Below are positions 18,523 through 40,831 of a stretch of 64,000 nucleotides of DNA, piece after piece. A program made the position numbers and the translations under genes. The notes below the pieces were generated by a model, which saw only the letters and a list, made by a program, of their open reading frames with translations, had not been told where the DNA came from and ran no database searches. Each line of letters begins with the position of its first letter. Position 1 is the stretch's first letter. Source of the stretch: a candidate division LCP-89 bacterium (GTDB lineage Bacteria; Electryoneota; B3-LCP); the NCBI GenBank assembly GCA_025774555.1, contig JALGVT010000007.1, positions 17,327-81,326 of the forward strand, written 5' to 3'.

Positions 18523-18524
18523 TG

Positions 18525-20168: not shown

Positions 20169-20195
20169 AACGTTCTGATCTCCGTTGGTAGCTAA

Positions 20196-20792: not shown

Positions 20793-20822
20793 CAAAAAAG
20801 AGCCGTGATTTTACGGCTCTTA
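20793..20822 (-). terminator. Rho-independent terminator after anti-sigma gene (agagccgtaaaatcacggctct + T6 on minus strand)
   Basis: 9-bp stem hairpin followed by tttttt on the minus strand. Confidence 0.55.
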
Positions 20823-20862
20823 CATAGAAAAAAAGTGTAAACTACTGCAAGGACATCAGCAA

Positions 20863-21366
20863 TTACGCAATAGTTGCACTTATCTTCGCAATGCTTTCAC
20901 CATTTGCCATAGTCCCCAACATAGTACAGTTCCAGTAATCAAAAGATTCAGCGCCACAATCCGATTGAGTGATTTGATTGATTTCCTCTACATTAGAGAA
21001 GAGGTCTATTTGTTCGAAGAAAGCAACGATCTTCTCTTTGAGGTTATTTATGGCTGGGGAAGCGTACTTACCGACCATTATACCAAAGAAAGTAACCAGC
21101 AACCCCACACCGAGCGCACTGATCCAGTCGGGCAGCAGACCGGCAAAACGGAGTTTCGGCAGGTCCTCCATGACCTCCTCAAGGAATCCTTCCGGCGCTT
21201 TCAAAATTTCCTGTCCGCGCAGCAGGGCGGCGAGAGTTCTCTCTTCTTCGAGGGTCGCCCGGCATTTGTCACAAACATCCAGATGCTCTTCTAATTTCTG
21301 TCGTGCAGCATCCGTTAATTCACCGTCCAGATAATCTTCGAGAAGCTGCCGGTCAGAGCATTTCAT
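20863..21366 (-). CDS. Anti-sigma factor, zinc-finger (ZAS-like) with one TM
   Basis: HLDVCDKCRATLEE zinc-finger motif, TM segment, 4-nt overlap with the upstream ECF sigma gene. Confidence 0.6.
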   Translation of the reverse strand: MKCSDRQLLEDYLDGELTDAARQKLEEHLDVCDKCRATLEEERTLAALLRGQEILKAPEGFLEEVMEDLPKLRFAGLLPDWISALGVGLLVTFFGIMVGKYASPAINNLKEKIVAFFEQIDLFSNVEEINQITQSDCGAESFDYWNCTMLGTMANGESIAKISATIA

Positions 21367-21947
21367 GGTGAAGTACTCCGAGTTTTCAGGTACATGTCCG
21401 CATTCCTCCTCATCTGTTCACGCGCACGATGCAGATATGCTTTTATGGTTCCTACAGGGTGCCCAAGCACTGCTGATATCTCTTTGCAATCGAGATCCTG
21501 GATATAAAACAGGACAACTATCGACCGGTACGCCGGGGGAAGTTCTTTAATCAATTTTTCCACCAGGTCTCGTTTTTCAAGTGTGGTTTCGATGTTCTCC
21601 GATTTAATACCAGCCGGCTTTACTTTATCTAACTCGATCTGCTCATATTGGTCAACCGGTTTACTCTTTTGCCTGAGTTCGCTCAGACAGGCGTTCACAG
21701 TAATGCGATAAAGCCAGCTTGAAAACTTACTTTGCCCTTTAAATCTGGAAATTGCCCTCCAGGCGCGAATGAACGCTTCTTGTGCTGTATCCTTAGCACG
21801 ATCGGGATCTCCCATCGTGCGGCAGGCAAGATTATATACCTGATCCTGATAGATTTGAACCAGTTCACCGAATGCATCGCGATCCCCCTCCTTAGCGCGC
21901 TGTATTAATGTATCCTCCGGAGAGGGTATCTGTTTATCGGGCGTCAT
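21363..21947 (-). CDS. RNA polymerase ECF-type sigma-70 factor
   Basis: region 2 (YQDQVYNLACRTMGDPDRAKDTAQEAFIRAW) and region 4 HTH (DLDCKEISAVLGHPVGTIKAYLHRAREQM). Confidence 0.85.
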   Translation of the reverse strand: MTPDKQIPSPEDTLIQRAKEGDRDAFGELVQIYQDQVYNLACRTMGDPDRAKDTAQEAFIRAWRAISRFKGQSKFSSWLYRITVNACLSELRQKSKPVDQYEQIELDKVKPAGIKSENIETTLEKRDLVEKLIKELPPAYRSIVVLFYIQDLDCKEISAVLGHPVGTIKAYLHRAREQMRRNADMYLKTRSTSP

Positions 21948-22317: not shown

Positions 22318-24279
22318 TTGACCAGATCGATCATCACAGCGATAATCTGCTTGATTACCCTTTCATACTCTCTGTTCGCCCAAACTATCATCCCCGGCGG
22401 TGAGGTTTATGGCACCTGGACAGCGGATGGTTCTCCCTACCTTATTGAAGGTGAAATAAATGTCCTTGAGATGCATTCGCTCACTATTACACCCGGTGTT
22501 GAAGTCATATTCCAAGGCTTTTATGAGTTCTTTATCGAAGGGATTCTCGATGCGTCAGGCGTTGAAAACGATTCGATCTTGTTCACCGCAGCCGACAGCA
22601 GCGCAGGTTGGGGCGGCATTACCTTCTTGAGTCAGCAGGAAGAAAGTTCACTGACATATTGTATCATACAGCACGGGCGGATGGGCAGCATCACTAATCA
22701 CGGAGGCGGCATTACCTGCAGCTATTCCAGCCCAACGATCAGGCACTGCTCCTTCAGATGGAATCACGTCGGCGCATATGGCGGCGCCATTTACTGCTTC
22801 CACTCCGAGGCAGTCATTTTAAACTGTGTCTTCACACATAACAGCGCAGGACATGGCGGCGGCATTCATAGTTTGAATTCTGATCCAACCATTACTGACT
22901 GTTCTTTCACTGATAATTGGGCTGCTGATTATGGCGGAGGCATTTACTGCTATATCTCCAATGCTGTAATATCGGGATGCACCCTTACCGAAAACAGCGC
23001 AAGTAATGGCGGCGGCATTTTTTGCAGGGCAGGTTCGGACGCAACCATATCAAACTGTGTGATTCGTGGAAATATCGCTATTACGGGTGGAGCCATTCAC
23101 TGCAATCTCTCCAACCCGACTTTTGAGAACTGCCTTATTGAGAACAATATCGCTGAAGAGGGCGGCGGTATTTACTGCTGGGTAGGTTCACAACCGAATA
23201 TATTGAACTGTTCCATTATCGGGAACAGCGCAACACTCAATGGGGGCGCTATCGTCTGTGAAGATTCATCCGGTATCAATGTTATCAACTCTACAATTTG
23301 GGATAATTCATCCCTGCAGATATACCCCGAAAATCTGCGAGTCCAATACTGCGACGTTCAGGAAGGATATGCAGGAAACGGCAATATCAATGCAGATCCC
23401 TTGTTCATTTCAGGACTGGGAGGCGATTACTATTTAAGTCAACTCATTGCCGGTCAAGCTCAGCAGAGCCCCTGCGTGGATGCAGGAAATCCGTCATCGG
23501 CAGTGATCTACGGAACGACGCGCACAGATGGCGTTCAGGATCAGGGGATCGTCGATATGGGTTATCATTATAGCGCATCTGTGACTTATCCTGACATGCA
23601 AATCATCCTCAGTTACCTTTCCGGTTCGCCCGTTCCTGCGGGTGGCGGGAATATCTACTTCGACGTCTATGCTGAAAACGCCGGATTGACGCCGTTGACC
23701 TTCGACGCCTGGCTGGAGATAGCCTATGAGGGTGGGACTCCTACGACGGTAGTGCAGCGGCACTTTGTCAACTATCAGCCGGATTGGGCGATCAACCGTC
23801 CCGGTATCTGGTACCCGGTGCCGGGCAGTTACGCTGCCGGCAACTACACTTTCATTGGCAAAGTGGGCGTTCATCCAGCAGTTGCATGGGATGAGAGCGG
23901 TTTCCCGTTTGTTAAATCCGGAACCGATTACATTGCAGGGTTTATACCGTGGGCACCGGACGGAGTGCCCAATCCGTTTGATAAAATTCAGAAGGGCGAC
24001 GCGCGCGTCGTACCTACGGAGTTGGTGTTGTTGGGAGCGTACCCCAATCCCTTCAATCCGACGACAACTATCAGCTATCAGCTTTCAGCGCTCAGCTTTG
24101 TGAATATGACGGTCTACGATATATCGGGAAGATTTGCTGTAGAGTTAGTCAAAGGCTGGAGAGATGCGGGTATGCATGAGGTGACGTTTGATGCGTCTGA
24201 TTTGGCGTCGGGGATATATATCTACCGCATGGAAGCAGGAGAGTTTGTGGCATCGGGGAAGATGCTGTTACTAAAATAG
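22318..24279 (+). CDS. Secreted right-handed parallel beta-helix repeat protein with pre-CTD module and T9SS C-terminal sorting domain
   Basis: TTG start, signal peptide, >10 NxxxxGGGI(Y/F)C PbH1-like repeats, C-terminal YPNPFNPTTTISYQLS...GKMLLLK. Confidence 0.8.
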   Translation: MTRSIITAIICLITLSYSLFAQTIIPGGEVYGTWTADGSPYLIEGEINVLEMHSLTITPGVEVIFQGFYEFFIEGILDASGVENDSILFTAADSSAGWGGITFLSQQEESSLTYCIIQHGRMGSITNHGGGITCSYSSPTIRHCSFRWNHVGAYGGAIYCFHSEAVILNCVFTHNSAGHGGGIHSLNSDPTITDCSFTDNWAADYGGGIYCYISNAVISGCTLTENSASNGGGIFCRAGSDATISNCVIRGNIAITGGAIHCNLSNPTFENCLIENNIAEEGGGIYCWVGSQPNILNCSIIGNSATLNGGAIVCEDSSGINVINSTIWDNSSLQIYPENLRVQYCDVQEGYAGNGNINADPLFISGLGGDYYLSQLIAGQAQQSPCVDAGNPSSAVIYGTTRTDGVQDQGIVDMGYHYSASVTYPDMQIILSYLSGSPVPAGGGNIYFDVYAENAGLTPLTFDAWLEIAYEGGTPTTVVQRHFVNYQPDWAINRPGIWYPVPGSYAAGNYTFIGKVGVHPAVAWDESGFPFVKSGTDYIAGFIPWAPDGVPNPFDKIQKGDARVVPTELVLLGAYPNPFNPTTTISYQLSALSFVNMTVYDISGRFAVELVKGWRDAGMHEVTFDASDLASGIYIYRMEAGEFVASGKMLLLK

Positions 24280-24422
24280 CAGTTAGCAGTTGGCTGTTAG
24301 CCGTTAGTTTGGGCGATCTTAGGATTGCCCATTTACCTATATAACGTTTGATTTTTATCAGTACGTGCGTTATATTGGGATGAAGTTCATCTACATGAAA
24401 TTTGATAAGGCAGGAGGATAAG

Positions 24423-25559
24423 TTGAATCTGTTAAATATTGGTGTGATTGCTAAATCTCAAAAGGAGAATGAACGGAGAGTTCCCATTCATCCGAATCAA
24501 CTGGAATGGATACCGGAAGAGATTCGCAGGTATCTCACATTCGAATACGGCTACGGAGTGCCATTCGGCGTCAATGATAATAAATTGGCTGGACTGTCCG
24601 GAGGATTGGCTGACAGGGAACAGATACTGAAAGAAGCGGACGTTGTACTGATATCCAAGCCACTAATAAAAGACTTTCAGTCCATCAAACAGAATGGTGT
24701 TCACTGGGGATGGGCGCATGTGGTTCAGCATACGGACCGAGCCCAGGTGGCAATAGATAACAAGCTGACATTGATCACCTGGGAATCGATGAACACATGT
24801 ACTCCTTCAGGCAGGCTGTCACACATCTTTTATAAGAACAACGAAATCGCAGGTTACGCGGGAGTTATGCATGCACTTAGCTTAACCGGATCAGATGGGC
24901 ACTATGGTCCGCGCCGCAAGGCGGTCGTCATCCATTTTGGATCCGTCAGCCACGGCGCCATTCACGCTCTACAGGGCAGGGGAATTCACGATATTTATGT
25001 CTACATAACAAACCCGATTGAAATGATCATAAACCAGGTGCCTGGAGTTTATTACCGACAGATTATAAAGGATGATTTTGACCAACTTCACGTCCAGAAT
25101 GAAGACGGTTCGGAAAAACCCTTGATCGACGATCTTTCTGAGGCTGATATAATCGTCAACGGGATCATGCAGGATACCGACAATCCCCTGATTTTCGTAC
25201 ACGAAAACGAAATTGATCGTTTGAAACCGGGAGCGCTGATTATTGATATCAGTTGCGACGAAGGGATGGGATTCTCGTTTGCCAAACCGACTACGTTCGA
25301 TAACCCAATGTTCATGGTAGAAGACATCCACTATTACGCAGTTGATCATACACCATCGTACCTCTGGAACAGCGCCTCCTGGGAAATATCGAAAAGCCTG
25401 ATTCCCTTTCTACCGACAGTGATGAAGGGACCTGAAGCCTGGGATCAAGACGAGGTGATTCAAAAGGCGATTGAGATACGTTCCGGTGAAGTTAAAAATG
25501 AGAAGATTCTGAACTTCCAGAACAGATCACCTGAATATCCACATCTTGTGATGGGGTAA
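24423..25559 (+). CDS. AlaDH/PNT-family NAD(P)-dependent dehydrogenase (saccharopine dehydrogenase / carboxyethyl-ornithine synthase-like)
   Basis: LNIGVIAKSQKENERRVPIHP N-terminus like alanine dehydrogenase; DISCDEG...NP segment like lysine-forming saccharopine dehydrogenase; start placed at TTG 24423 after AGGAGGA RBS (ORF-track start 24402). Confidence 0.5.
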   Translation: MNLLNIGVIAKSQKENERRVPIHPNQLEWIPEEIRRYLTFEYGYGVPFGVNDNKLAGLSGGLADREQILKEADVVLISKPLIKDFQSIKQNGVHWGWAHVVQHTDRAQVAIDNKLTLITWESMNTCTPSGRLSHIFYKNNEIAGYAGVMHALSLTGSDGHYGPRRKAVVIHFGSVSHGAIHALQGRGIHDIYVYITNPIEMIINQVPGVYYRQIIKDDFDQLHVQNEDGSEKPLIDDLSEADIIVNGIMQDTDNPLIFVHENEIDRLKPGALIIDISCDEGMGFSFAKPTTFDNPMFMVEDIHYYAVDHTPSYLWNSASWEISKSLIPFLPTVMKGPEAWDQDEVIQKAIEIRSGEVKNEKILNFQNRSPEYPHLVMG

Positions 25560-25577
25560 TTCATAAAGGAGGACACA

Positions 25578-27812
25578 ATGCGTCGTTTGATGATAATCTC
25601 CTTGCTTCTGATAGCTATATCCGCTTTTGCCCGTACAATCGACGACACCTACCACATGGGTTCAGCCGTCTTTGCCGGGGATTTCTACGATGTACTGTAC
25701 CACAACGGCTATGTCTGGATCGCCGACGGCGAGCAGGTCTATTCCGGAAACGTGAAGATCATGGACGTTTCCGATCCGGAAAATCCGTTCGTAGCGGCTC
25801 ATATCTCATACACAGACGGCTCTGCATTCCGGTTGGATGCTGAGGGCGATCTATTATTCGTCTCGGTCAAAGGGCACGGGGTGAAAATCTATAACGTCAG
25901 CGCCCCCCTCTTCCCTCTCTTTGTTGGTGAGTACACTGCAACCGAAACAATCAATGACATGGATGTTTTAGGTGATCTGCTCTGCGTCTTGGGCACGCAG
26001 ACGGGTCTTTCTATCCTGAACATCATCAATCTTTCAAATATCCAGACACTTTCACAGACAGCGATTTCAGGCAGCCGTTATTCACTGGCGGTAACCTCGG
26101 ACAGCCTGCTGAGCGTCGCCTCCGGTGCGACGGGACTTCAAATATTTACCATTGCCGATCCCGTCGCGCCGCGTCTTCTGGATACCGTCACCCTGGATCA
26201 GAAGACTTTCCACGACGTGGTCTGCAATGACACACACGCCTACGCCGTTTACCGCCGAACCATGATCAACAGCGGCGGATTTGCAGTAATAGACATCTCA
26301 AATCCTCCCAATTTCACTGTTTTAGCACAGCCTATAACCTTTGGGGTCGATCCTTTTCCAGACAACGGCTTATACCTGGCAGGAGATACTCTCTTTTTCG
26401 CTGCTACGCAGGGCGGATTCGGCGTGTGGAATATATCCGAACCTGAAAATCCATCGCGTTACGGCGGCTGGGGAGGAGCGGCTTTACCCGGGATTGTGGC
26501 GCGCTGGTCAACGAGGTGCACTTTCGGTGGAGGTTTTGCCTATAATATCTCCCCTGACCGCCTCCTGACGGATACAAAAAACGAAGCCTGTGTTTTCGAC
26601 CTATCCGACTTGACCGATCCACACCCTATCGGATTCTACGACGTTACAGACTGGGTAAAAGACGCGGTGGGATCAGGTGATTATGCCTATGTTGCTTCCG
26701 GCTCGGATGGTTTGCTGGTCGTAGATATTTCAGACCTGGAGAATCCGGTCATCGTTGGAGGCGAGGAACAGCACTTTATCAACTTGTCAGGCAGTAGTGT
26801 CCTGTATGAAAACGGTTACGCCTATGTCAGCGGCGGGTGGGTCGCCCTGAAGATATTCGATGTCATAAACCCTGAAAATCCCACTGTAGTCTCGACAGTC
26901 AATGAAGGTTGGGCATCCTACCGTGATATGGATAAACAGGATAGCCTGATTGCCGTTGTGGGGACGGGAATATCACCATCGCCGCCCGGCTGGTTAAGCA
27001 TCATTAACGTTACGGATGTTGCCAGCCCCCAGTGGATGGGGTATATCAATCTCGACGTCGGCGTTCACGGTATCGACCTAGTTGACACACTGGCTTTTAT
27101 TGGATACGCCGACGGTTTAGGAGTGTTGGATATCAGCATCCCGAATAATCCGGTATTGATAAGCTCGTATGATACCGGCGAAGGCGGGCAAGATGTGGTG
27201 GTAAGGGATAATATCGCTTTCGTGGCAGATCAATCCAACGGTCTGGTAATTCTGGACGTCAGCGATCCTTTCGATCCCCGTCCGATTTCATCACTGGACA
27301 CGCCCGGCTGGGCGATGGAATTCGAATTGGTCGGTGACTCTATATATGTAGCCGATTCAACAGCGCTGGTAATCATAGATGTATCAGATCTGCAAAACCC
27401 GGCAGTTGCCGATATTGTTCCGGTGCTGGGTTTCGCCCAAGGAATATCCGTTGATGATGGCCGCATATTCCTCTGTGATAATTACGGCTTTCACATCTAT
27501 ACACACGAATGGCTGGGTATAGCAGAGACAGGCGGAATATCTCAAATGCCAGTTGCATTTAATGTAAATTGTCATCCCAATCCCTTCAATCCGATCACAG
27601 CTATCAGCTTTCAGCTTTCAGCGGTCGGCTATGTGAATCTGGCGGTTTACGATGCTCAGGGGAGGCAGGTTGCTGAACTTATCAACGGCTGGCGGAATGC
27701 GGGTGTGCATGAAGTCACCTTCGATGCCTCGAATCTGGCGTCAGGTTTATATATCTACCGCTTGCAGGCAGATGACTTCACTGCCACCGGCAAGATGGTG
27801 CTGATGAAATAA
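25578..27812 (+). CDS. Secreted LVIVD-repeat beta-propeller protein with T9SS C-terminal sorting domain
   Basis: RBS aaggagg; signal peptide; repeated LVVVDISDLENP / LVILDVSDPFDP / LVIIDVSDLQNP LVIVD motifs; C-terminal HPNPFNPITAISFQLS...GKMVLMK. Confidence 0.8.
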   Translation: MRRLMIISLLLIAISAFARTIDDTYHMGSAVFAGDFYDVLYHNGYVWIADGEQVYSGNVKIMDVSDPENPFVAAHISYTDGSAFRLDAEGDLLFVSVKGHGVKIYNVSAPLFPLFVGEYTATETINDMDVLGDLLCVLGTQTGLSILNIINLSNIQTLSQTAISGSRYSLAVTSDSLLSVASGATGLQIFTIADPVAPRLLDTVTLDQKTFHDVVCNDTHAYAVYRRTMINSGGFAVIDISNPPNFTVLAQPITFGVDPFPDNGLYLAGDTLFFAATQGGFGVWNISEPENPSRYGGWGGAALPGIVARWSTRCTFGGGFAYNISPDRLLTDTKNEACVFDLSDLTDPHPIGFYDVTDWVKDAVGSGDYAYVASGSDGLLVVDISDLENPVIVGGEEQHFINLSGSSVLYENGYAYVSGGWVALKIFDVINPENPTVVSTVNEGWASYRDMDKQDSLIAVVGTGISPSPPGWLSIINVTDVASPQWMGYINLDVGVHGIDLVDTLAFIGYADGLGVLDISIPNNPVLISSYDTGEGGQDVVVRDNIAFVADQSNGLVILDVSDPFDPRPISSLDTPGWAMEFELVGDSIYVADSTALVIIDVSDLQNPAVADIVPVLGFAQGISVDDGRIFLCDNYGFHIYTHEWLGIAETGGISQMPVAFNVNCHPNPFNPITAISFQLSAVGYVNLAVYDAQGRQVAELINGWRNAGVHEVTFDASNLASGLYIYRLQADDFTATGKMVLMK

Positions 27813-27830
27813 AATACAACGGAGGATAGA

Positions 27831-29492
27831 ATGCGTAACACCGTCATTTCCATTCTCATACTGGGCGTGTTGACCGTTACGGGTAACTCCCAGACTATCG
27901 TCCCCGGTGGACCTGTGTCCGGGACCTGGACACAGGCGGGATCGCCCTACTTGATCGAAGGGGAAATTACCATCCCCGATGGAGAGACATTGAACGTAGC
28001 TCCTGCTGTGGAAGTCATTTTTCAGGGGCATCATAAGTTCATCGTTAATGGATACCTGGAAGCCACCGGGACAGCAGAGGATTCGATTATATTCACAGCA
28101 GCAGATACGAGCGAAGGCTGGCACGGCATTCGGTTCAACCATGCTCCTGATAGCAGCCACTTAATATTCTGCATCGTTCAATATGGTTATGCCACAGGGA
28201 GTGATCCTGAAGATTGGGGTGGTGGAATCCATATCTATAACTCAAATCCAGTCATTAGCCACTGCTTAATTGAGAGGAATTCGGCTGTGGTTGGCGGCGG
28301 GATTTGCTGCTGGTATTCCAATCCCACCATCGAAAACTGCATTATCAGCGAGAACACGGCTACGGGCGTCGGCGCCGTAGCTGGCGGTATTTATGGTTGG
28401 GAATCCAACCCAACCATCAATCAGTGTGTCATCACCGGGAATTTCGGCGGGGGAATCTACTCCTATGAGTCTGCTAACCCAATCATCAGTCAATGCACTA
28501 TTACCTGGAACGCCGGAGGGATTTATTGCAATGACTCTAGCCCAACCATTTCAAACTGCACGATTATTGGGAATTCGGCTAGTGATGCCGGAGGCGGGAT
28601 CACCTGTGCCTGGGGTTGCAACTCGATCATTTCTAACTGCATTATCAGCGGGAATTCGTCCATAAATGTTGGCGGCGGAATCGGCTGCTGGGATTCTGCC
28701 CCGACCATCGAAAACTGCACCATCAGTGGGAATTCAACTGGTATAGGTGGCGGTGGAATTTACTGCGAGCATGAACACGGCCCGACGATTGTGAATGTAA
28801 TTGTAGAAGGTAACATTGGAAATGGAGGCATTTACTTCAATGATTCCCCAAATGTGACTATCACCTACGGGGATTTTTACAACAACGAAGGGAGTAGTTT
28901 TATAGGAAATACCATACCTGCATATTTAGGTGAAATCGTAGCCATTAACACCAACGGCGATTCGTGTGACATTTTCTTCAATATCTACGAGGATCCATTG
29001 TTCGTTAACGAACCCTTAAGCGACTATCATCTCTCACCGGACTCTCCCTGTATAGACGCCGGGAATCCTTTTGTGCAATACAACGACCCGGAAGACCCTC
29101 TAACCCCCGGATATGCCCTCTGGCCAGCACAGGGAACGATCCTGAATGATATGGGAAACTCTGGAGGGCCTGGAGCAAGGGATTGGGTCGTAGGAATCAA
29201 GAAGAACCCCAGCTCGAGATCTGTGCCTTCTATTTTTAATTTACAGCAAAACTACCCCAATCCCTTTAATCCCTCGACGGTTCTCAGTTATCAGCTGTCA
29301 GTGGTCAGCAATGTTACCCTGTCGGTTTACGATGTGTCGGGGCGGAAGGTGGCCGAACTGGTGGATGGCTGGAGGGATGCGGGGCAATACGAGGTTACTT
29401 TCGATGCTTCCCACCTCCCTTCAGGTATCTATTTCGCTCGGCTGACGGCTGGAGATTTCACCTCTACTGGCAAGATGATTCTTATGAAATAA
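27831..29492 (+). CDS. Secreted parallel beta-helix repeat protein with T9SS C-terminal sorting domain
   Basis: paralogous N-terminus to 22318 gene (IVPGGPVSGTWTQAGSPYLIEGEI), GGGI(Y/C)C repeats, CTD YPNPFNPSTVLSYQLS...GKMILMK. Confidence 0.8.
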   Translation: MRNTVISILILGVLTVTGNSQTIVPGGPVSGTWTQAGSPYLIEGEITIPDGETLNVAPAVEVIFQGHHKFIVNGYLEATGTAEDSIIFTAADTSEGWHGIRFNHAPDSSHLIFCIVQYGYATGSDPEDWGGGIHIYNSNPVISHCLIERNSAVVGGGICCWYSNPTIENCIISENTATGVGAVAGGIYGWESNPTINQCVITGNFGGGIYSYESANPIISQCTITWNAGGIYCNDSSPTISNCTIIGNSASDAGGGITCAWGCNSIISNCIISGNSSINVGGGIGCWDSAPTIENCTISGNSTGIGGGGIYCEHEHGPTIVNVIVEGNIGNGGIYFNDSPNVTITYGDFYNNEGSSFIGNTIPAYLGEIVAINTNGDSCDIFFNIYEDPLFVNEPLSDYHLSPDSPCIDAGNPFVQYNDPEDPLTPGYALWPAQGTILNDMGNSGGPGARDWVVGIKKNPSSRSVPSIFNLQQNYPNPFNPSTVLSYQLSVVSNVTLSVYDVSGRKVAELVDGWRDAGQYEVTFDASHLPSGIYFARLTAGDFTSTGKMILMK

Positions 29493-29504
29493 ATCCCTCA
29501 GAAT

Positions 29505-29563
29505 TGTCATTCCGGGCGACGAACCGGGATCCGGTAGGGGCAACGCGTGCGTTGTCCTTTTTT
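29505..29563 (+). terminator. 3' element: tgtcattcc motif + GTAGGGGCAACGCGTGCGTTGTCC hairpin + T6
   Basis: same architecture as 1787..1851. Confidence 0.55.
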
Positions 29564-29876
29564 GTCTGTCTGCCGTCAATAATAAAATAATTCGATTTAG
29601 TGAAATATTTATCTTGTTTTCGTATGACATTTTACATATATTAATAGGATAAGTCATCTTTCAATTTGGTTTACCCGCTCAACTGGATTGAATTTTGCTT
29701 GTTACAATAAGATAAATGAGTGATATATCCACTCGTGAGATCGGTGTCGAACGCATCGGATGATGCCGAATCATGGTAATATCGAAGTAACTGCCACCGT
29801 GAAAGATACCGATATGAACTTGATGACAATAACATTAAAGGATAAATAACTGGAAAGAACTCAATCAGGAGGTGTT

Positions 29877-32810
29877 ATGAGAAGTTGCCTGCTTGCACTG
29901 TTTTGTGCATTGATTGCATTACCCGTAATTGCTGCTCCGGTGACTACCGCCGATCAAGCAGTAGATAAAATGGAAAAAATGGCTCTGCCTGACGGTAAAG
30001 ATGAAGTCATTCTTCAGGTGTGGGGTCCGGTTCCTGCCGGGACGGAAGTTCTGGGATGCAGTGAACACGTGATGACAACTCCCGCAGATGGGTACGTTAT
30101 CTTCATCGATGACTACCCGACCGCAAACCTGTTCCACCCGGTGCGCTATGCTTTCGTGAGTTCGGGTACCGGCGAGGTTACGGTTGTCGACGCGTCAAGT
30201 CCACCTGAGAATTATGCTGATTACGAAAGAATAGAGACGCGTATCTGGAACCAGCTATCCGCTCTTGAAAACCGCAGAGCGCCCAAGCCCGCCGCACCGC
30301 ACGAACCCATTGACAGCGACCGCTGGGCAGTTTTAATGAACGGCGGACACGATTCAGGCAACAACCATATCCGGTACTGGAACGATCTGTCGAATATCTA
30401 TATGGCTTTGAATGCGGTGTACGGTTTTGCTGATGACCACATCATCGTGCTCTGTTCTGACGGCTTGAATCCCGCGCCGGATCAATCGAACGGGCAGAAT
30501 TCCGATCCGGATTTGGACGGCGATGGCGATGATGACATCATGTTCCAGTGCGATCTGGCAAACGTGGATGCGGTATTCGCCAATCTGGTGACGACACTGG
30601 TGCCAGAAGATAAACTGTTCATATTTTCTACAGATCATGGCAGCAGCGATGGTGGCTGGAGCACTCATTTCAACCTCTGGAACCATGAAGAGCTGTTGGA
30701 TTCGCATTTCGCGTCTCTGCTGGCAGCCCTGCCCCAGTGTGAAGTCATCTGTACATTCGAACCCTGCTTTTCAGGCGGATTCTTAGATGACGTGGTCGTT
30801 CCTCCAGGACCGATAGTCGCTTCCTCCTCCTGCAGACATGATGAATATTCCTGGGCAATGCCGCCGGACTATATGTACGACACCTATGTATTTCACTGGA
30901 CAGCGGCAGTCAAGGGGGAAGACGCTTATGGTGTCGTCGTGGATGCTGATTACAACAGCGACGGCGTAGTTACCATGGACGAAGCGTTCATCTATGCCGA
31001 AATACATGATACTTCAGATGAAGAACCGCAATATGGCGACTATCCCGTTGGCATCGGGGCAGGGATTTCACTCTGGCCCACAGGAACGGGACCATTCCTG
31101 GTGGTGGCGGATAAGGAATTCGACGATATCGGCGGCAACAACAACGGCGCTCCGGATCCGGGTGAAACAGTGTCGATGTTGGTGACTTTGTCCAATGTCG
31201 GAAATGGAATAGCGGAAAACATTACCGGTACCCTTACAACAACAGATCCCTACTTGACAGTAACACAGAATTATGCCACATATCCGGATTTAGGGCAGTT
31301 TGAGCAGGGACAGGGAACACCCGAATATATGCTAGATATAAGTAGCGCCTGCCCGCAGGGTCAAAGCGTTGTCTGCGATATGCACATTACCGCTAACGGC
31401 GGCTACGAGAACGACGTGGTCGTGAGCTTCACAGTCGGAGACCCGGTGTACGATCCGTGCGGACCGGACAGTTACGGTTATATGGCGTACGACCCCTTCG
31501 ATGAACCGGAATTCCCGGTGTACGAATGGGTGGAAATCTGCGCTGATTCGGGTGGACCCGGGACGCTGGTCAACTTCACAATGGACGATGAAACCTTCCA
31601 ATTTGACCTGCCCTTCGATTTTCAGTATTACGGGCAGTCGTTCACGCGTTACACCATTGCGGCGAATGGCTGGATCGGTATGGGCGATATTCTAGAAGAC
31701 GATTACAGCAATTCCGGCATCCCTGACAGCGATGGACCGAACGGAATGATAGCGCTTTACTGGGAAGATCTGTCGCCGCAAAGAGTCAATTCGGGCAGAG
31801 TGTGGAACTGGTACGATGAAACCGATCACATGCTGATCGTGGAATACAACCACATCGAACAATACGCGCCGACGGGTTCGTTCGAGACCTTCCAAGTGAT
31901 CCTGCTGGATCCCGATTACTATCCAACTGGCACCAATGACGGACGCATAATATTCCAGTACAAAGATATGTCGGCGACCGCGCAGACTGAAGGAACTGTC
32001 GGCATTGAAAATCCCGGCGAAACGATAGGGTTGGAGTATCTCTACGACGGGTCGTATGATCTCCATGCATCGCAGATCAGGAATGAGATGGCGATTCTAT
32101 TCACCACGGTGGGCAGTGTGCCGGAAATGACTATCGCTCTGACCTATGTATCCGGATCGCCGGTTCCTGCCGGTGGCGGGAATATCTACTTCGACGTGTA
32201 TGTCGAAAACGCCGGATTGACGCCGTTGAGCTTCGATGCCTGGCTGGAGATAGTCTACGAGGGTGGCACGCCCAGTACGGTCGTGATGCGCTCCTTTACT
32301 AATTACCAACCCGGTTGGACGATCAACCGTCCCAATATGTTCTTCCCGGTGCCGGGCAGTTACGCCTCCGGCAATTACACCTTCACCGGCAAAGTCGGCG
32401 TTCACCCTTCAGTCGTCTGGGATGAGAGTGGTTTCCCGTTTGTTAAATCCGGGACCGATTACGTTGCAGGGTTTATACCGTGGGTGCCGGACGGTGTGCC
32501 CAACCCGTTTGATGAGATTGACAAGGGCGACGCACGCGTCGCCCCTACGGAGTTCACACTATTGGGCGCGTATCCCAATCCCTTTAATCCTACAACAGCT
32601 ATCAGCTATCAGCTTTCAGCGGTCAGTCTCGTAAACCTATCGGTTTACGATATATCTGGAAGAAAAGTAGCGGAACTGGTAGACGGTTGGAGAAATGCGG
32701 GTGTGCATGAGGCGACGTTTGATGCTTCTGATCTCGCTTCCGGCATCTACATCTACCGCATTGAAGCAGGTGATTTCAGTGCGGTGAGGAAGATGGTGTT
32801 GGTGAAATAA
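29877..32810 (+). CDS. Secreted caspase-fold cysteine peptidase (C25 gingipain-like) with pre-CTD module and T9SS C-terminal sorting domain
   Basis: RBS aggagg; signal peptide; FSTDHGSS (His) and CTFEPCFSGGF (Cys) dyad in gingipain/clostripain order; C-terminal 200 aa ~85-90% identical to 22318 gene module; CTD ...GIYIYRIEAGDFSAVRKMVLVK. Confidence 0.6.
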   Translation: MRSCLLALFCALIALPVIAAPVTTADQAVDKMEKMALPDGKDEVILQVWGPVPAGTEVLGCSEHVMTTPADGYVIFIDDYPTANLFHPVRYAFVSSGTGEVTVVDASSPPENYADYERIETRIWNQLSALENRRAPKPAAPHEPIDSDRWAVLMNGGHDSGNNHIRYWNDLSNIYMALNAVYGFADDHIIVLCSDGLNPAPDQSNGQNSDPDLDGDGDDDIMFQCDLANVDAVFANLVTTLVPEDKLFIFSTDHGSSDGGWSTHFNLWNHEELLDSHFASLLAALPQCEVICTFEPCFSGGFLDDVVVPPGPIVASSSCRHDEYSWAMPPDYMYDTYVFHWTAAVKGEDAYGVVVDADYNSDGVVTMDEAFIYAEIHDTSDEEPQYGDYPVGIGAGISLWPTGTGPFLVVADKEFDDIGGNNNGAPDPGETVSMLVTLSNVGNGIAENITGTLTTTDPYLTVTQNYATYPDLGQFEQGQGTPEYMLDISSACPQGQSVVCDMHITANGGYENDVVVSFTVGDPVYDPCGPDSYGYMAYDPFDEPEFPVYEWVEICADSGGPGTLVNFTMDDETFQFDLPFDFQYYGQSFTRYTIAANGWIGMGDILEDDYSNSGIPDSDGPNGMIALYWEDLSPQRVNSGRVWNWYDETDHMLIVEYNHIEQYAPTGSFETFQVILLDPDYYPTGTNDGRIIFQYKDMSATAQTEGTVGIENPGETIGLEYLYDGSYDLHASQIRNEMAILFTTVGSVPEMTIALTYVSGSPVPAGGGNIYFDVYVENAGLTPLSFDAWLEIVYEGGTPSTVVMRSFTNYQPGWTINRPNMFFPVPGSYASGNYTFTGKVGVHPSVVWDESGFPFVKSGTDYVAGFIPWVPDGVPNPFDEIDKGDARVAPTEFTLLGAYPNPFNPTTAISYQLSAVSLVNLSVYDISGRKVAELVDGWRNAGVHEATFDASDLASGIYIYRIEAGDFSAVRKMVLVK

Positions 32811-36005: not shown

Positions 36006-37523
36006 ATGTCGAAGCTAATTACTTTCTTCATCGCTTTCGCGATATTGATCCCTTCTTCCTTTGCTGCAACGATTCATGTCCCCGGGAATTATGCCACAAT
36101 ACAAGCTGGTGTAAACGCAGCAGCCAATGGTGATACCGTACTTGTTGGACCGGGAACGTACACCGAAAGCGTTACCATTCAGAACGTTACCATCCATCTT
36201 CTTACCTCAAACGGACCGGACGCGACCAAGATTATAAGAACCGGCTCCGGATTGATCAGCTGTCTGACCGTCTATACATCTTCTGAAATCAGAGGTTTCA
36301 CGCTTGAGCGATCTGGCGCGTATTTGACGGCTGCTACACTCCAGGTTCTCGATGGAAGCCCGCTCGTTCATCACAATCTCATCAAATGTATCGCAGAAGG
36401 TGTGATCTGCGTGGAGATTGCAGGATCCGGCTCGCCTCAATTTCTGAACAATACTCTGTATGGATTGGATGATGACTTCAATTACGGATTCAAAGTCACT
36501 TCATCGGCAGTCTGCCCGACGATAAAAAACAACATCGTCTACTTGAATCCTTCGATTTTCGGGCCGGAATACGGTATTTACAATCAGGCTGGCGCCGCCA
36601 TCATTCATACGTACAATGATTTCTACCAATGCACTTTATCCGGAACCTCTCTGGGGTTGGGTGAGATTCAAACCAATCCACTGTTTGTCGGGGGAAGTCC
36701 GTACTCCTATCACCTTCAATCAAACTCCCCCTGCATTGACACGGGAGTCCCTATATTTACCGACCCGGACTTCACGCGAAGCGACATGGGATGCTTCTAT
36801 TATGATCAGGGCACATTATCCGTCAATGTAACCGTAACCCTGACACCGGATACCATTCCTGTGCAGATTCCTGCTTCTGGAGGTAGTTTTGACTATAACA
36901 TCGCCGTTGCGAACCCTGAAGCCTTCTCGGTTCCAGCTAATGTGTGGTTTATGATAACTCTTCCGAGCGGTGTGTTGTGGGGCCCTATACAGAACCCAAT
37001 TAACGTGAACCTAAATGCTGGTTTTAGCGGCAATCGTGACAGGACCCAATTTATACGAGGCTCCATATCGCCAGGCAGCTATACTTATCACGCGTATATC
37101 GGTCTTTACCCCGGCATAATCTGGGATCACTCCTGCTTTGGCTTTGAGAAATTGATCACCGGCGGTGAATCAGAAGTGTATGATTGGTACTGCACTGGTG
37201 AAAGCTTCGATGAGTGGCAGACTACACCTGAGATTGATATCTCAGCTGAATTTAACTTGCGAGGCGCGTACCCCAATCCCTTTAATCCCTCGACAGCTAT
37301 CAGCTATCAGCTTTCAGCGCTCAGCTTTGTGAACCTTGCTGTTTATGATCTATCGGGACGGAAAGTTGCCGAACTGGTCAATGGCTGGCGGGATATTGGC
37401 AGCCACGAAGTAACCTTTGACGCTTCTGATCTGTCATCCGGCATGTATTTGTACAAACTTCATGTGTCGGGGTCAGGGGTGATCCCGACTATTGATACCG
37501 GTAAGATGGTGCTTATGAAATAA
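36006..37523 (+). CDS. Secreted pectate-lyase-fold beta-helix protein with pre-CTD module and T9SS C-terminal sorting domain
   Basis: TIHVPGNYATIQAGVNAAANGDTVLVGPGTY N-terminus; CTD YPNPFNPSTAISYQLS...GKMVLMK. Confidence 0.8.
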   Translation: MSKLITFFIAFAILIPSSFAATIHVPGNYATIQAGVNAAANGDTVLVGPGTYTESVTIQNVTIHLLTSNGPDATKIIRTGSGLISCLTVYTSSEIRGFTLERSGAYLTAATLQVLDGSPLVHHNLIKCIAEGVICVEIAGSGSPQFLNNTLYGLDDDFNYGFKVTSSAVCPTIKNNIVYLNPSIFGPEYGIYNQAGAAIIHTYNDFYQCTLSGTSLGLGEIQTNPLFVGGSPYSYHLQSNSPCIDTGVPIFTDPDFTRSDMGCFYYDQGTLSVNVTVTLTPDTIPVQIPASGGSFDYNIAVANPEAFSVPANVWFMITLPSGVLWGPIQNPINVNLNAGFSGNRDRTQFIRGSISPGSYTYHAYIGLYPGIIWDHSCFGFEKLITGGESEVYDWYCTGESFDEWQTTPEIDISAEFNLRGAYPNPFNPSTAISYQLSALSFVNLAVYDLSGRKVAELVNGWRDIGSHEVTFDASDLSSGMYLYKLHVSGSGVIPTIDTGKMVLMK

Positions 37524-37684: not shown

Positions 37685-40600
37685 GTGAAAAAGATAATCG
37701 CTGTTACTATTGCGCTTTTATCGATGGCTGCAGTATCATACGCTATCACGCTTCATGTTCCAGGAGAATATCAGACCATTCAGGGTGCGGTTGATGCAGC
37801 TAACCATGGAGACACTGTACTCGTTGCCGCAGGAACCTATGAGGAGAGCGTCATCATTGAGGATGCTGCTATATGCCTCATGAGCGAGGATGGTGCGCGC
37901 GTTACCAGAATTATGGTGATGGGCAGCAGCAACGACCACGTTGTTGCAGTGCACAACTCTTCCGAGATTTCAGGCTTCTACCTTTATCGTGCTGCGTCTT
38001 ATTGGTCGGGCGCTTCACTCAAGGTGTACGATGGAAGTCCTTACGTCCATCACAACCTCATAGTATGTAATTCCGAAGGCGCATGCTGTGTTGAAATCGC
38101 CGGTTCTGGAACGCCCTTATTCCTTAACAATTCACTGGACTGCCCGGTAACTCCTGACGCTACTTATGCCTGGGGCTTTCATATCTCTTCAGCGGATGCT
38201 GTCCCGACCATGAAGAATAATATCGTACGCGCGCCTGACTGGGGATGGGATCCGGGTTATTGTATTTACAATCAGGCTTACGCAGATCTCAATCATACCT
38301 ACAACGATTACTACATCGGCACTCTGTACGGCACACAGCTTGGATTAGGCGAAATTCAGGAAAATCCGCTATGGGGCGGTGTATGGCCCTCATACGATCT
38401 GACGTCGAATTCACCCTGCATCGATGCTGGTATTCCTACCTTACTTGATCCCGATTCGACACGGAGCGATATGGGGTGTTTTTACTATCATCAAATAACC
38501 TACCCCCCAACCATCACATCAACACCCGATACGATGGGTTTCGCCGGTCTTCCGTATTCCTACCAATTAGTTTTTGATGCTAACCCGTTTCCAGAATTTG
38601 AATTGTTGACATATCCAGCAGGAATGACAGTTGATACTGCCGGTCTGATTGAGTGGAATATACCTGTCACTGCCGTGTACGATACCGTTGTCAGTGTGCG
38701 AGCCTACAATATCTTTGGTGAGGATTTGCAGGAATATCCCCTGCATGTTCTTGAAAATACCAACCATCCTCCAGAAATCACTACCTATTCACCATTAGTT
38801 CTGGACAGCCTGGATTATCGCGATGAAGTCGAATTCTCAATCACGGCGATCGATCCAGATCTCGATCCCTTGACCTATTCCTGGGAATTGAATGGTGAGG
38901 AGATATCTACTGATACGAGTTGTACGATCAGCTTTTCAGTACTTGGCAATAATGAACTCACAGCCCGTGTCTCCGATCCCTGGGAATCGGACAGCGTTAG
39001 TTGGCAGCCGTTTGTTCGGGGTACAGCTGTGAGTGGTAATGTGAGCGGCACCTGGATCAGTGCTGCGAGTCCGTACGTTGCCTCATCGGATATCACCATT
39101 CCAACCGGCGCTACACTCGTTATGGCGCCCGGTACAGTTCTATATCTCGGCGATAGTACTCATTTGATTGTACAGGGACACTTAGAGGTGGTGGGTGTTG
39201 AAGCCGACTCCGTTTATATACTAAAGGACGGGATGGCTTCCAGCGGCGGTGTCAGGCACGTCCAATCAGCTACATCTTCATCTTTGATTTCATATTGCAG
39301 AATTGAGGCTGGAAGCTGGTGTGTTTCAGCGGATAATGTTGGAGCCCAATCGATTGCAGTTTATAACAGCCATCTCCAGGCTGCCTATGGTATCCATACT
39401 GCGAATGTGGAAAACATTGAGGCGCGGGATTGCCGGATTATCGCCTTGAATACCGGTGTTTATTCATATTCTATAAATATAGTTACTGTTGTGGATTGTG
39501 AATTCAGCATAGGTAAAGGAGTCTATATTAATGGGGCATATAATGTACAAGTAATCAATAACGTATTTGACGTTAACAATATCGCAATCAGTGTGCATGG
39601 CGGGTCAAGTATCTGTCTTATTGAAGGTAATGAGATTCACACTTCGTATTATATCGGTATCGAAGCGTGGGGATGTCTGCAGGATATATTGCTGACGCGA
39701 AATATGCTCTACGTGGTAGGAACGCCTGCCTGGGATTCTTATGCATTCCATATTGTGGATAGCGACGTCGAAATCCTGAATAATACTGTCGTATTAGAAT
39801 ACCCGGGGCGAGTTGTCACTATCGGATCAACCTATGGATCGGTGAATGTTCGTAATAATATCATGTACGGTGCAGGGGGAGGACCTGCCATCTATGCCTA
39901 CGCTGTAAGTCCAAACAGTGTCATCGAATATAACGATTTTTTTGGATTCGATTCACTGTATTACCACGTCTCACCCGGCGAAGGTAATGTTACCGAAGAT
40001 CCTCTCTTTGTGGGCGGTGATCCGTATTCCTACGAATTGCAGGCGGGCTCACCCTGTATCGATGCAGGCGATCCAACCAGTCCGCCTGATCCGGATTACA
40101 CCAGGGCGGATATGGGTGCTTACTACTTCAATCAAGGATTTGCACCATCACTTGAAGTGAACCTGACACCTTATAATCCACCTGTTCAGGTACCGGCTTC
40201 CGGTGGAAATATCGATTTCAACATCGAAGCAGGCAATACCGGATCGAGCCTTGCTACTTTCAGTATCTGGTGTGATATTACACTTCCCAACGGTAACAGC
40301 TATGGGCCAGTGCTGGGTCCGCTTAGCGTCACAATGAATGCAGGGTGGAGTGCTGATCGTGATCGAATCCAACAGATTCCTGCGATTGCTCCGGCAGGTG
40401 TTTACAGTTACAGCGCCTACGTGGGGATCTACCCGGACATTGTGGCTGATATGGACAGTTTTGATTTCGAGAAGCTGACAACGGGTGATGGGCCGGTCGT
40501 TATCGGGTGGTTGAACAGTGGTGGAGATTTCGATCTCTGGATGGTGGGCACGCCTGATCTGATTCCCGCAGAATTTTCGTTAGAGACAGCCTATCCCAAT

Positions 40601-40831
40601 CCGTTCAATCCTACGACAATTTTAAATCTACAGTTGCCTGAAGCTGCTGACGTGAAACTACACGTCTATAACATCAGAGGCAGTCTGGTGGCAGTATTGA
40701 TAAATGGCTGGAGAGATGCGGGATCCCACGAAGTGGTATTCGATGGTTCGACTCTCTCTTCCGGTATCTACATCTATCGCCTGCAAGCCGGCGAACACCA
40801 CGAGGTCGGCAGGATGGTGCTGATGAAGTAA
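37685..40831 (+). CDS. Large secreted beta-helix protein (paralogue of 36006 gene) with T9SS C-terminal sorting domain
   Basis: GTG start, signal peptide, ITLHVPGEYQTIQGAVDAANHGDTVLVAAGTY, pre-CTD module homologous to 36006 gene, CTD YPNPFNPTTILNLQLP...GRMVLMK. Confidence 0.8.
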   Translation: MKKIIAVTIALLSMAAVSYAITLHVPGEYQTIQGAVDAANHGDTVLVAAGTYEESVIIEDAAICLMSEDGARVTRIMVMGSSNDHVVAVHNSSEISGFYLYRAASYWSGASLKVYDGSPYVHHNLIVCNSEGACCVEIAGSGTPLFLNNSLDCPVTPDATYAWGFHISSADAVPTMKNNIVRAPDWGWDPGYCIYNQAYADLNHTYNDYYIGTLYGTQLGLGEIQENPLWGGVWPSYDLTSNSPCIDAGIPTLLDPDSTRSDMGCFYYHQITYPPTITSTPDTMGFAGLPYSYQLVFDANPFPEFELLTYPAGMTVDTAGLIEWNIPVTAVYDTVVSVRAYNIFGEDLQEYPLHVLENTNHPPEITTYSPLVLDSLDYRDEVEFSITAIDPDLDPLTYSWELNGEEISTDTSCTISFSVLGNNELTARVSDPWESDSVSWQPFVRGTAVSGNVSGTWISAASPYVASSDITIPTGATLVMAPGTVLYLGDSTHLIVQGHLEVVGVEADSVYILKDGMASSGGVRHVQSATSSSLISYCRIEAGSWCVSADNVGAQSIAVYNSHLQAAYGIHTANVENIEARDCRIIALNTGVYSYSINIVTVVDCEFSIGKGVYINGAYNVQVINNVFDVNNIAISVHGGSSICLIEGNEIHTSYYIGIEAWGCLQDILLTRNMLYVVGTPAWDSYAFHIVDSDVEILNNTVVLEYPGRVVTIGSTYGSVNVRNNIMYGAGGGPAIYAYAVSPNSVIEYNDFFGFDSLYYHVSPGEGNVTEDPLFVGGDPYSYELQAGSPCIDAGDPTSPPDPDYTRADMGAYYFNQGFAPSLEVNLTPYNPPVQVPASGGNIDFNIEAGNTGSSLATFSIWCDITLPNGNSYGPVLGPLSVTMNAGWSADRDRIQQIPAIAPAGVYSYSAYVGIYPDIVADMDSFDFEKLTTGDGPVVIGWLNSGGDFDLWMVGTPDLIPAEFSLETAYPNPFNPTTILNLQLPEAADVKLHVYNIRGSLVAVLINGWRDAGSHEVVFDGSTLSSGIYIYRLQAGEHHEVGRMVLMK

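Follow-up and report, generated by a model that had tools for sequence, protein, structure and literature searches.

Two unrelated T9SS cargo genes of a candidate division LCP-89 bacterium share a tail of a widespread, unnamed type, probably through a single old copying event

NCBIfam choice-of-anchor domains are defined by the C-terminal sorting signals that they adjoin on varied proteins. In RgpB of P. gingivalis, and likewise in Kgp and PPAD, a seven-strand sandwich of the Ig-like kind is followed by a disordered linker and the T9SS CTD; a role as spacer or insulator has been suggested for this sandwich (the IgSF domain) in RgpB (PMC4804311). In rgpA, kgp, and hagA, non-catalytic C-terminal modules are shuffled by recombination among T9SS cargo genes within a single genome (PMC13390158). 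RbmA, secreted into the biofilm matrix of Vibrio cholerae, consists of two domains and binds exopolysaccharide (PMC5605196). Here we describe a tail with the RgpB layout in a window of 64,000 nucleotides from a candidate division LCP-89 bacterium (contig JALGVT010000007.1, positions 17,327 to 81,326); coordinates below are those of the window, and all features named lie on its + strand. The tails of genes 22318 and 29877 probably go back to a single, old copying of a module that is widespread and unnamed. In the account that we prefer and consider probable, a T9SS cargo tail was copied once, likeliest from 29877 to 22318, after an earlier module swap in the C13 gene 29877, and the module would serve as a spacer.

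Ten genes of the window passed the T9SS CTD thresholds, while an eleventh (49406), also counted as cargo in a previous interpretation made from the letters alone (the sequence-only reading), stayed below them. No T9SS component genes were identified among the scanned window ORFs. By analogy, the CTD would direct export across the outer membrane. The head of gene 22318-24279 (22318..23595) consists of a right-handed beta-helix/PMP-repeat region with a cap, has Pfam Chlam_PMP and NosD matches, and, as far as aa ~392, shares 41% identity with the gene 27831 head. That of gene 29877-32810 (29877..32126) comprises a C13 (legumain-like) peptidase (aa 1-403) and a NIDO-like middle domain (aa 404-747), the latter found also on M28 and S8 peptidase heads at 62-77% identity. 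The label "C25-peptidase-like," given to this gene earlier, has to be replaced: Pfam returned Peptidase_C13 (34.1 bits, cutoff 22.8) and no match to Peptidase_C25, and the orthologues of the gene are also annotated PF01650 (precomputed). Both N-termini are hydrophobic and signal-peptide-like, as judged by eye on the translations. The two heads, outside the shared repeat, are unrelated, as had been assumed, with no blastp match upstream of aa 413/737.

The 3' ends of the two genes form a direct repeat. In blastn, 23620-24278 aligned with 32151-32809 at 80.9% identity over 659 nt (E 3e-178; register 23620↔32151, offset 8,531), where chance would yield no such match. The repeat (~660 bp, ~81% overall, in genes 8.5 kb apart) runs through the CTD up to the stop codons, and beyond either end the identity falls at once to ~30%. 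The tail is a single block, from a domain boundary to the stop codon. The sequence-only reading had called this module near-identical in the two genes; the long direct repeat is real, but at silent sites the copies differ considerably (pS 0.40-0.54). The reading had also paired the copies 19 nt out of register, which leaves an ungapped identity of 24%: the partner of 23590..24065 is 32121..32596, not ~32140..32615. In place of its 85-90% DNA identity we measured 83.4% for 23620-24065 or 81.5% for 23590-24065, and the module end that it set at ~24065 is passed by the repeat, which extends at 75% identity over the whole CTD as far as the stop codon.

Three parts make up the tail. The pre-CTD module, a 112-aa seven-strand beta-sandwich of type 1, lies at 23596..23931 in gene 22318 (copy A, aa 427-538; profile E 5e-73) and at 32127..32462 in gene 29877 (copy B, aa 751-862), and the copies are 81% identical in both amino acids and nucleotides (pS 0.43, dN 0.12). 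The linker that follows (copy A, 23932..24042, aa 539-575, Pro/Gly/Asp-rich; copy B, 32463..32573, aa 863-899, predicted to be disordered, with pLDDT <50 at model residues 142-157) has 81% aa identity and a pS of 0.40. The T9SS type A CTD (copy A, 24043..24279, aa 576-653 plus stop; copy B, 32574..32810, aa 900-977 plus stop) is 76% identical in amino acids with a pS of 0.54 and ends on the last residue of either protein; it scored 37.9 bits in gene 22318 and 47.6 bits in gene 29877 against TIGR04183 (cutoff 23), and 35 and 39.6 bits, respectively, against PF18962 (cutoff 27).

The module occurs elsewhere in the window as well. A third type-1 tail follows the Kelch-propeller head of gene 70-1773 (1069..1770: module 1069-1404, linker 1405-1536, CTD 1537-1770; profile E 4e-67); its module is 54-61% identical to copies A and B in amino acids (pS 0.64-0.69; blastn, 72% over 245 nt), and the more diverged copy suspected in this gene is thus confirmed. 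The modules noticed ahead of the CTD in genes 36006-37523 and 37685-40831 proved to be homologous and very diverged (25-33% aa). Their type-2 tails span 36828..37520 (module 36828-37163, linker, CTD 37272-37520; profile E 1e-64) and 40151..40828 (module 40151-40486, linker, CTD 40595-40828; profile E 1e-62). The module of gene 36006 is 25-28% identical to the type-1 modules, falls into the type-2 clade of the tree, and is 46% identical to that of gene 37685. All five module-bearing genes carry TIGR04183/PF18962. The family as a whole numbers 2,932 representatives at E<=1e-3; in 152 of 159 proteins the module lies a median of 5 aa upstream of the CTD, and it precedes a CTD in 78 ORFs from 39 loci as well.

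Neither Pfam nor NCBIfam describes this domain: for the five window modules Pfam held no usable family even at E<=10, and no NCBIfam model matched the module, choice-of-anchor models included (choice_anch_Q and choice_anch_B match heads of genes in the window). The literature searched describes neither this module nor any T9SS cargo from LCP-89 or Zixibacteria. The only significant PDB sequence match was to the FnIII domains of RbmA (E 5e-5). PF22021 (RbmA-like_FnIII) hit the gene-70 copy alone, below its gathering score (13.4 bits versus 27; E 0.07), and gave no match at E<=10 in the other four window copies. AlphaFold modeled the module with a pLDDT of 90 and, for module plus CTD of copy B, returned two sandwiches of 7 + 7 strands and a disordered linker (pLDDT <50). 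The module is an RbmA/FnIII-like seven-strand beta-sandwich, belonging to a large family without a name; by analogy with RgpB, it would fold independently and act as a spacer or stalk parting the head from the CTD.

Since the two genes have no homology outside the repeat, the divergence of orthologues at silent sites served as the yardstick for that of the pair. All relatives compared were metagenome-assembled and distant, none of them from the same genus. The pS between the modules of genes 22318 and 29877 was 0.43, while that between the module of 29877 and its closest orthologue, P0161, was 0.75, and conserved neighboring genes had a pS of 0.70-0.81 to their orthologues in L041. Judged by these silent sites, the common ancestor of copies A and B postdates the divergence of this lineage from its closest sequenced relatives. 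Their dN was 0.12-0.16 and their dS ~0.6-1.0, and a dN/dS of ~0.2 indicates purifying selection on both. The CTD had a higher pS than the module, but the difference was not significant on these counts. Mismatches were spread evenly along the repeat (chi-square over 8 bins, p = 0.40), and a GENECONV-style fragment permutation test gave P = 0.14, so that neither mosaic tracts nor a conversion signal was found in the pair. The even divergence, the substantial dS, and the ω of ~0.2 fit one block copy rather than ongoing gene conversion. The CTD part is less clearly a unique pair, since the CTD of gene 22318 is about as near to that of gene 25578 (dS 0.92, against 1.01 to the CTD of 29877).

The most serious alternative, which we nevertheless regard as unlikely, is that gene conversion among cargo tails is repeated and ongoing, the window pair being simply the latest one converted. 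It would account for the fact that for 37 of 64 modules the best partner is another module of that genome, where sample sizes would predict ~9, and for LCP-89 CTDs that are up to 82-90% identical on modules just 52-71% identical. The same clustering is, however, equally expected from lineage-specific duplication, as the sampled genomes are distant from one another, and in the JBPLZN assembly the same-genome pairing has a bootstrap of only 27%. Ongoing conversion would also fit a 27-mer at the CTD start that recurs with at most one mismatch (0 occurrences expected) at 24064..24090, 27597-27623, 32595-32621, 35563-35589, and 37293-37319; the sequence-only reading had rightly seen these CTD codons recur almost verbatim, though in six genes instead of five. 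The 27-mer sits in a block of ~40 nt whose silent sites are conserved inside this genome but not between genomes (codon identity of 0.67-1.0 versus 0.3-0.55), and fragment tests on the block were significant (P<0.0005 for genes 22318 and 36006; 0.001-0.0015 for two other pairs). These tests are confounded by peptide conservation, as no other peptide motif is more conserved than the one this block encodes. The pair itself, with its pS of 0.40-0.54 and evenly spread mismatches, speaks against conversion, as does the third type-1 copy, which in the same genome has kept a pS of 0.64-0.69; with the type-2 copies at 25-33% aa, the copies of this genome are not homogenized. One trait expected of gene conversion is present, the two paralogues of this genome being more alike (pS 0.43) than module orthologues of different genomes (0.75). 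Ongoing concerted evolution of the pair, as first proposed, nevertheless finds no support.

The single-copy account draws further on the history of gene 29877, of which we compared 24 full-length orthologues. In 22 of these the module is only 23-34% identical to that of 29877, and all 21 of the 22 that were placed in the tree belong to the different deep subtype, type 2. The tree has two clades, with a bootstrap of 100% for type 1 and 81% for genes 22318 and 29877 together. The breakpoints of the replacement fall at aa ~745, a domain boundary, and at ~890, the CTD start. The series supports an in-place replacement of module and linker by another subtype: the original type-2 module and linker of the C13 gene would have given way to a type-1 module while the CTD was kept. 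The CTD of gene 29877 is 59-70% identical to those of the type-2-module orthologues, so it was probably inherited vertically.

As a separate observation on the middle domain, gene 29877 is slightly nearer to M28/S8 proteins than to type-2 C13 orthologues at aa ~550-700, whereas at aa 400-500 it is nearer to the latter, in sequences that come from different genomes; the contrast is only suggestive of a crossover inside this domain.

The later step would have been the copying of module, linker, and CTD, once and most likely from 29877 to the beta-helix gene. Gene 22318 probably took its tail from this neighbor, because two syntenic relatives lack the segment in which it lies. This lineage-specific segment (22318..29492; ~7.9 kb with intergenic flanks) holds genes 22318, 24402 (AlaDh/PNT-like), 25578, and 27831 between an ECF sigma gene and the C13 gene, and in L041 and L047 the C13 gene directly follows the sigma gene. 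A foreign origin of the segment was considered and set aside, its GC content and composition profile being unremarkable.

The direction of copying is the most likely one but is not proven. Pairwise identities are symmetric, and a 22318-type tail overwriting that of gene 29877, by conversion between homologous type-1 tails, would yield identical figures. We hold this reversal to be quite improbable, even though the linker and CTD of P0161 are only 47-50% identical to those of 29877, as if the tail of 29877 had been replaced. The module of 29877 fits P0161 (0.71) as well as its head (0.74) and middle domain (0.72) do, and with the CTD of 29877 close to those of distant orthologues, it is the P0161 CTD that is the outlier. 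Moreover, the module of 29877 is nearer than that of 22318 to every outgroup, the longer branch being that of 22318, the gene inside the segment missing from both syntenic relatives. Given the P0161 linker and CTD, copying from 29877 to 22318 does require that the tail changed at least once more in one of the lineages.

Recombinational shuffling of a cassette, as the sequence-only reading had it, is borne out in part: the block copy and the module swap among orthologues support movement of the tail between unrelated heads. A fixed pre-CTD-plus-CTD unit is not supported, because module and CTD identities across 64 tails are nearly uncorrelated (Spearman 0.10) and the older swap left the CTD behind. 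A more far-reaching interpretation, to which we give little credence, is that the tail is a built-in exchange socket whose homologous flanks let module-plus-linker units and whole heads be exchanged among cargo genes by homologous recombination, regularly diversifying the secretome of these FCB-group bacteria. The upstream flank would be the middle domain common to the C13, M28, and S8 protease genes (62-77%), and the downstream one the CTD-start block of ~40 nt, with its silent sites conserved within a genome, where the older module replacement has its 3' breakpoint. Were this so, the module would be more than a passive spacer and would have a specific role, such as RbmA-like glycan binding or being recognized by the secretion machinery. 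Least credible by far is that the two tails have no recent common origin and are kept alike by strong purifying selection acting on a shared domain of ancient descent: a dN/dS of ~0.2 and the old, widespread family agree with it, but selection at the protein level leaves silent sites unpreserved, and these differ far less in the pair (pS 0.43) than in module orthologues (0.75) or neighboring genes (0.70-0.81).

Three other pairs were rejected as parallels. The L023 pair has a 100%-identical module, but the head is also 100% identical over 500 aa; it represents a whole-gene duplicate or assembly artefact and is therefore uninformative on tail exchange. P0130 and P0109 (module 73%, CTD 82%), considered as a case of concerted evolution, are positional orthologues in two syntenic genomes and thus reflect internal domain gain or loss. 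P0161-P0016 of the JBPLZN assembly failed as a second-genome replicate (bootstrap 27%, pS 0.65).

An old single copy of a widespread module is an ordinary case of domain shuffling, and the finding serves mainly annotation and evolutionary bookkeeping. Thousands of predicted T9SS cargo proteins from uncultured phyla of the FCB group contain the domain, for which Pfam and NCBIfam have no model; such a model would improve the domain parsing of these large secreted proteins. The C13 orthologue series shows cleanly, with sharp breakpoints, how a domain was swapped in place for a paralogue 25-30% identical to it. T9SS heads, spacers, and sorting signals have separate histories, and tail similarity is therefore unfit for inferring cargo function.

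No new mechanism is revealed, the layout being known already from the IgSF-linker-CTD terminus of gingipains. The AlphaFold model of the cargo C-terminus shows the same tandem of two sandwiches and a disordered linker; RgpB and gene 29877 are both clan CD cysteine peptidases with a sandwich-linker-CTD terminus, and in both the two domains lack a fixed mutual orientation (here in the AlphaFold model). By analogy with RgpB, the sandwich would present the disordered linker for sortase processing. The likeness is one of layout and fold; no homology in sequence between the RgpB IgSF domain and the module was seen. The linker is ~37 aa long here versus 9 in RgpB, and the module represents a distinct, unnamed family found on many unrelated heads in uncultured FCB-group phyla. 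The FnIII domains of RbmA have the same fold but do not form a tail ahead of a T9SS signal. The adhesin repeats of gingipains and hemagglutinin are nearly identical and actively recombining, whereas the copy described here is old (dS ~0.6) and free of mosaic structure. Like the choice-of-anchor domains, the module adjoins a sorting signal on varied heads.

The window carries a run of secreted-protein genes (named here by their first nucleotide), ten of which score above the curated cutoffs for the type A C-terminal sorting domain (CTD) of type IX secretion (T9SS; TIGR04183 / PF18962), along with an eleventh cargo gene (49406-51151) whose CTD score lies slightly below threshold. A pre-CTD module is carried by five of the eleven, type 1 by genes 70, 22318, and 29877 and type 2 by genes 36006 and 37685. 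The three parts of the tail were delimited by alignment and a profile from these five copies, and the repeat block comprises a 112-aa core, a linker of ~37 aa, and a 78-aa CTD. AlphaFold2 modelled the core as a seven-strand β-sandwich (pLDDT 90), and the core plus CTD as two sandwiches with a joining segment of pLDDT below 50.

The repeat shared by the beta-helix gene 22318 (22318-24279; copy A) and the peptidase gene 29877 (29877-32810; copy B) is real. In a self-BLAST of the window, 23620-24278 matched 32151-32809 with 80.9% identity over 659 nt (E, 3e-178) at an offset of 8,531 nt; the coordinates paired in the sequence-only reading implied 8,550, which is 19 nt out of register and gives an ungapped identity of 24%. 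In the correct register, the two copies were ~31% identical directly upstream of the block, 83.4% over the pre-CTD part (copy A, 23620-24065), 75.2% over the CTD (24066-24279), and ~29% directly 3' of the stop codon. The ~480-bp module described earlier is thus shared but does not end there, since the repeat takes in the entire 3' end through the stop codon, and the identities are slightly lower than the 85 to 90% claimed. The heads of the two genes are unrelated, as had been stated; the head of gene 29877, labelled C25-like, turned out in a domain search to be C13-like (legumain family), and the 27-mer ACAGCTATCAGCTATCAGCTTTCAGCG, ascribed to six genes, was found in five (at most one mismatch).

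We then compared the two copies part by part using Nei-Gojobori counts, in which the numbers of silent sites are small. Amino acid identity, silent-site difference (pS), and dN were 81%, 0.43, and 0.12 for the core, 81%, 0.40, and 0.12 for the linker, and 76%, 0.54, and 0.16 for the CTD, with dN/dS of ~0.2 across the shared tail. Mismatches were spread evenly along the repeat (eight bins, chi-square P = 0.40), and a GENECONV-style permutation test detected no unusually long shared fragment in this pair (P = 0.14), so that the block looks like a single, uniformly diverged unit, neither a patchwork of conversion tracts nor recent. For calibration we used two relatives, both, like all the relatives available, distant metagenome assemblies: locus L041 (GCA_011040515.1), syntenic with window 18292-21947 over six genes (48 to 90% amino acid identity), and P0161 (GCA_054018255.1), the closest full-length orthologue of gene 29877. 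Silent sites were saturated against L041 (pS, 0.70 to 0.81 for three of the six neighbouring genes and the C13 head), and the module pS between P0161 and gene 29877 was 0.75. Set against the 0.40 to 0.54 of the pair, these values show that the common ancestor of the two window tails postdates the divergence of these relatives. The repeat best fits one old copying event, in which a three-part T9SS tail was copied from one neighbouring gene to the other, in a setting of pervasive domain shuffling among these cargo genes.

Ongoing concerted evolution, by repeated gene conversion among the cargo-gene tails, seems unlikely. For 37 of 64 modules the best partner lay in the same genome (~9 expected), but lineage-specific duplication predicts such clustering equally well, the genomes being so distant. 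The best hint of short-tract homogenisation is a ~40-nt block at the beginning of the CTD (…CCC AAT CCC TTY AAT CC… ACA GCT ATC AGC TAT CAG CTT TCA GCG), whose silent sites are conserved across five window genes, even between genes with different module types. Codon identity at same-residue sites in it was 0.67 to 1.0 within this genome versus 0.3 to 0.55 between genomes, and fragment tests gave P values from <0.0005 to 0.0015 for three gene pairs; this stretch also encodes the best-conserved peptide motif, however, so the fragment test is confounded. An older module swap has its 3' breakpoint at the same place.

As to the direction of the single copying event, the simplest history, and the one we favour, is that the tail would have passed from gene 29877 to gene 22318, the β-helix gene acquiring it from the neighbouring C13 gene. 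This is favoured because the module of gene 29877 matches that of P0161 (0.71) on a par with the head (0.74) and middle domain (0.72), its CTD is 59 to 70% identical to those of the type 2 orthologues, its module is nearer than that of gene 22318 to every tested outgroup, and in the two syntenic relatives, L041 and L047, the C13 gene directly follows the ECF sigma gene, whereas in the window 7.9 kb (22318-29492) separates the two. The head of gene 22318 is a paralogue of that of gene 27831 (41% identical), which joins its CTD directly, without a module. Given the same evidence, the reverse event, with a 22318-type tail overwriting that of gene 29877, is improbable. Amid this lineage-specific insertion of cargo genes, between genes 22318 and 25578, lies a cytoplasmic-looking alanine dehydrogenase/PNT-like gene (24402-25559).

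An older event emerged from the ~25 full-length relatives of gene 29877 (958 to 1,028 aa, 42 to 70% identity), LCP-89 and Zixibacteria among them. Over 24 orthologues divided into parts, identity to gene 29877 fell smoothly from 0.74 to 0.56 for the C13 head and from 0.72 to 0.28 for the middle domain, while for the module it was 0.71 in P0161, 0.49 in P0166, and 0.23 to 0.34 in the remaining 22, including some with a head and middle domain 70 to 73% identical. Neighbour-joining trees of the 112 module residues had two deep clades (type 1 bootstrap, 100%; median between-type identity, 0.28), with 21 C13 orthologues in the type 2 clade. In sliding windows against these, identity was 0.65 to 0.8 up to aa ~740, 0.16 to 0.37 over the module and linker, and again 0.5 to 0.7 from the CTD start. 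From this sharp drop, together with the two-clade tree, we infer that in an ancestral C13 gene the module and linker were replaced in place by a type 1 unit, with the CTD retained. Such a clear in-place type switch within one orthologue series is new here.

The proposal of a fixed pre-CTD-plus-CTD export cassette did not hold up, module and CTD identity being nearly uncorrelated over 64 tails (Spearman, 0.10); P0140, for example, is 68% identical to gene 29877 in the C13 head and 73% in the CTD, yet only 31% in the module. The NIDO-like middle domain, module, and CTD of gene 29877 (~575 aa) are 58 to 67% identical to those of C13-, M28-, or S8-headed proteins (P0033, P0192 to P0195, and P0203), so the catalytic head appears exchangeable on a common stalk; identity to the M28- and S8-headed proteins is 62 to 67%, and the S8-headed group holds both module types. 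Judged by these identities, heads, middle domains, modules, and CTDs have partly separate histories. The C13 head (29877-31085) is also ~60% identical to hundreds of proteins of ~610 to 650 aa, most with PKD domains; one of this group, P0213, with no PKD domain listed, is labelled a Thermoplasmatales archaeon, a possible sign that the protease head has moved between archaea and bacteria. Genes 36006 (505 aa) and 37685 (1,048 aa) are tandem paralogues sharing N-terminal and tail regions and differing by an internal beta-helix block of ~540 aa. At the equivalent position, two syntenic genomes have a short (P0130; L040, 10001-11512) and a long (P0109; L046, 6363-9476) form, so this block was gained or lost between orthologues.

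Several other features of the window were recorded. A perfect 27-nt palindrome, GTAGGGGCGAGGTTACCTCGCCCCTAC (12-bp stem, 3-nt loop), which resembles REP or MITE elements, occurs at 45042-45068, 47308-47334, 50945-50971, and 53149-53175. Three copies are intergenic; the other lies in frame within the CTD of gene 49406, encoding VGARLPRPY, and may account for the sub-threshold score of that CTD. The palindrome is included in a ~123-nt intergenic repeat (44955-45077 and 47222-47343; 91% identical) on either side of gene 45193-47160; as RNA, the repeat has a better fold than shuffled controls have (z = -2.96). The CTDs of genes 49406 and 51226 (51008-51151 and 52963-53121) form a separate close pair (~78 to 80% nucleotide identity; dS, ~0.49), with Thr/Pro/Gly-rich insertions that the other window CTDs lack. 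Genes 70 and 33898 are each followed, immediately 3' of the stop codon, by a ~50-nt stretch (1852-1901 and 35823-35869; 86% identical), which may be a common terminator or what remains of a longer 3' region that was copied. Gene 33898-35778 opens mid beta-helix with a start that is not signal-peptide-like, and just 5' of it, in a different frame, is a 165-aa ORF (33194-33691) with no Pfam match; 33194-35778 is probably a frameshifted gene, pseudogene or assembly error.

Profile scans of Pfam and NCBIfam returned no model covering the core; RbmA-like_FnIII reached 13.4 bits (threshold, 27) in a single copy only. When 1.84 billion cluster representatives were searched exhaustively with the profile, 2,932 proteins matched at E ≤ 1e-3, and 1,573 still did so at E ≤ 1e-10. 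A T9SS CTD was detectable in 152 of 159 module proteins examined, starting a median of 5 aa past the end of the profile match. Uncultured FCB-group MAGs among the species-representative genomes carry the module in multiple copies (candidate division LCP-89, Zixibacteria, Calditrichaeota, Tariuqbacter, and several "bacterium" bins), and 39 loci and the window together have 78 ORFs that bear it behind heads of varied size, almost always immediately 5' of the CTD. This module family, widespread yet without a name, is likewise new here.

The closest studied analogue of the window tail is the IgSF-linker-CTD tail of RgpB, in which a disordered linker joins two independent sandwiches, the Ig-like domain and the CTD, the IgSF domain has been proposed as a spacer or insulator, and motifs of both domains are thought to steer CTD processing (PMC4804311). 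By analogy, the module would act as a spacer or insulator; polysaccharide binding as in RbmA (PMC5605196) would be a reasonable alternative. Like the window genes, the gingipains and hemagglutinins are T9SS cargo among which shuffling of non-catalytic modules is already known (PMC13390158).
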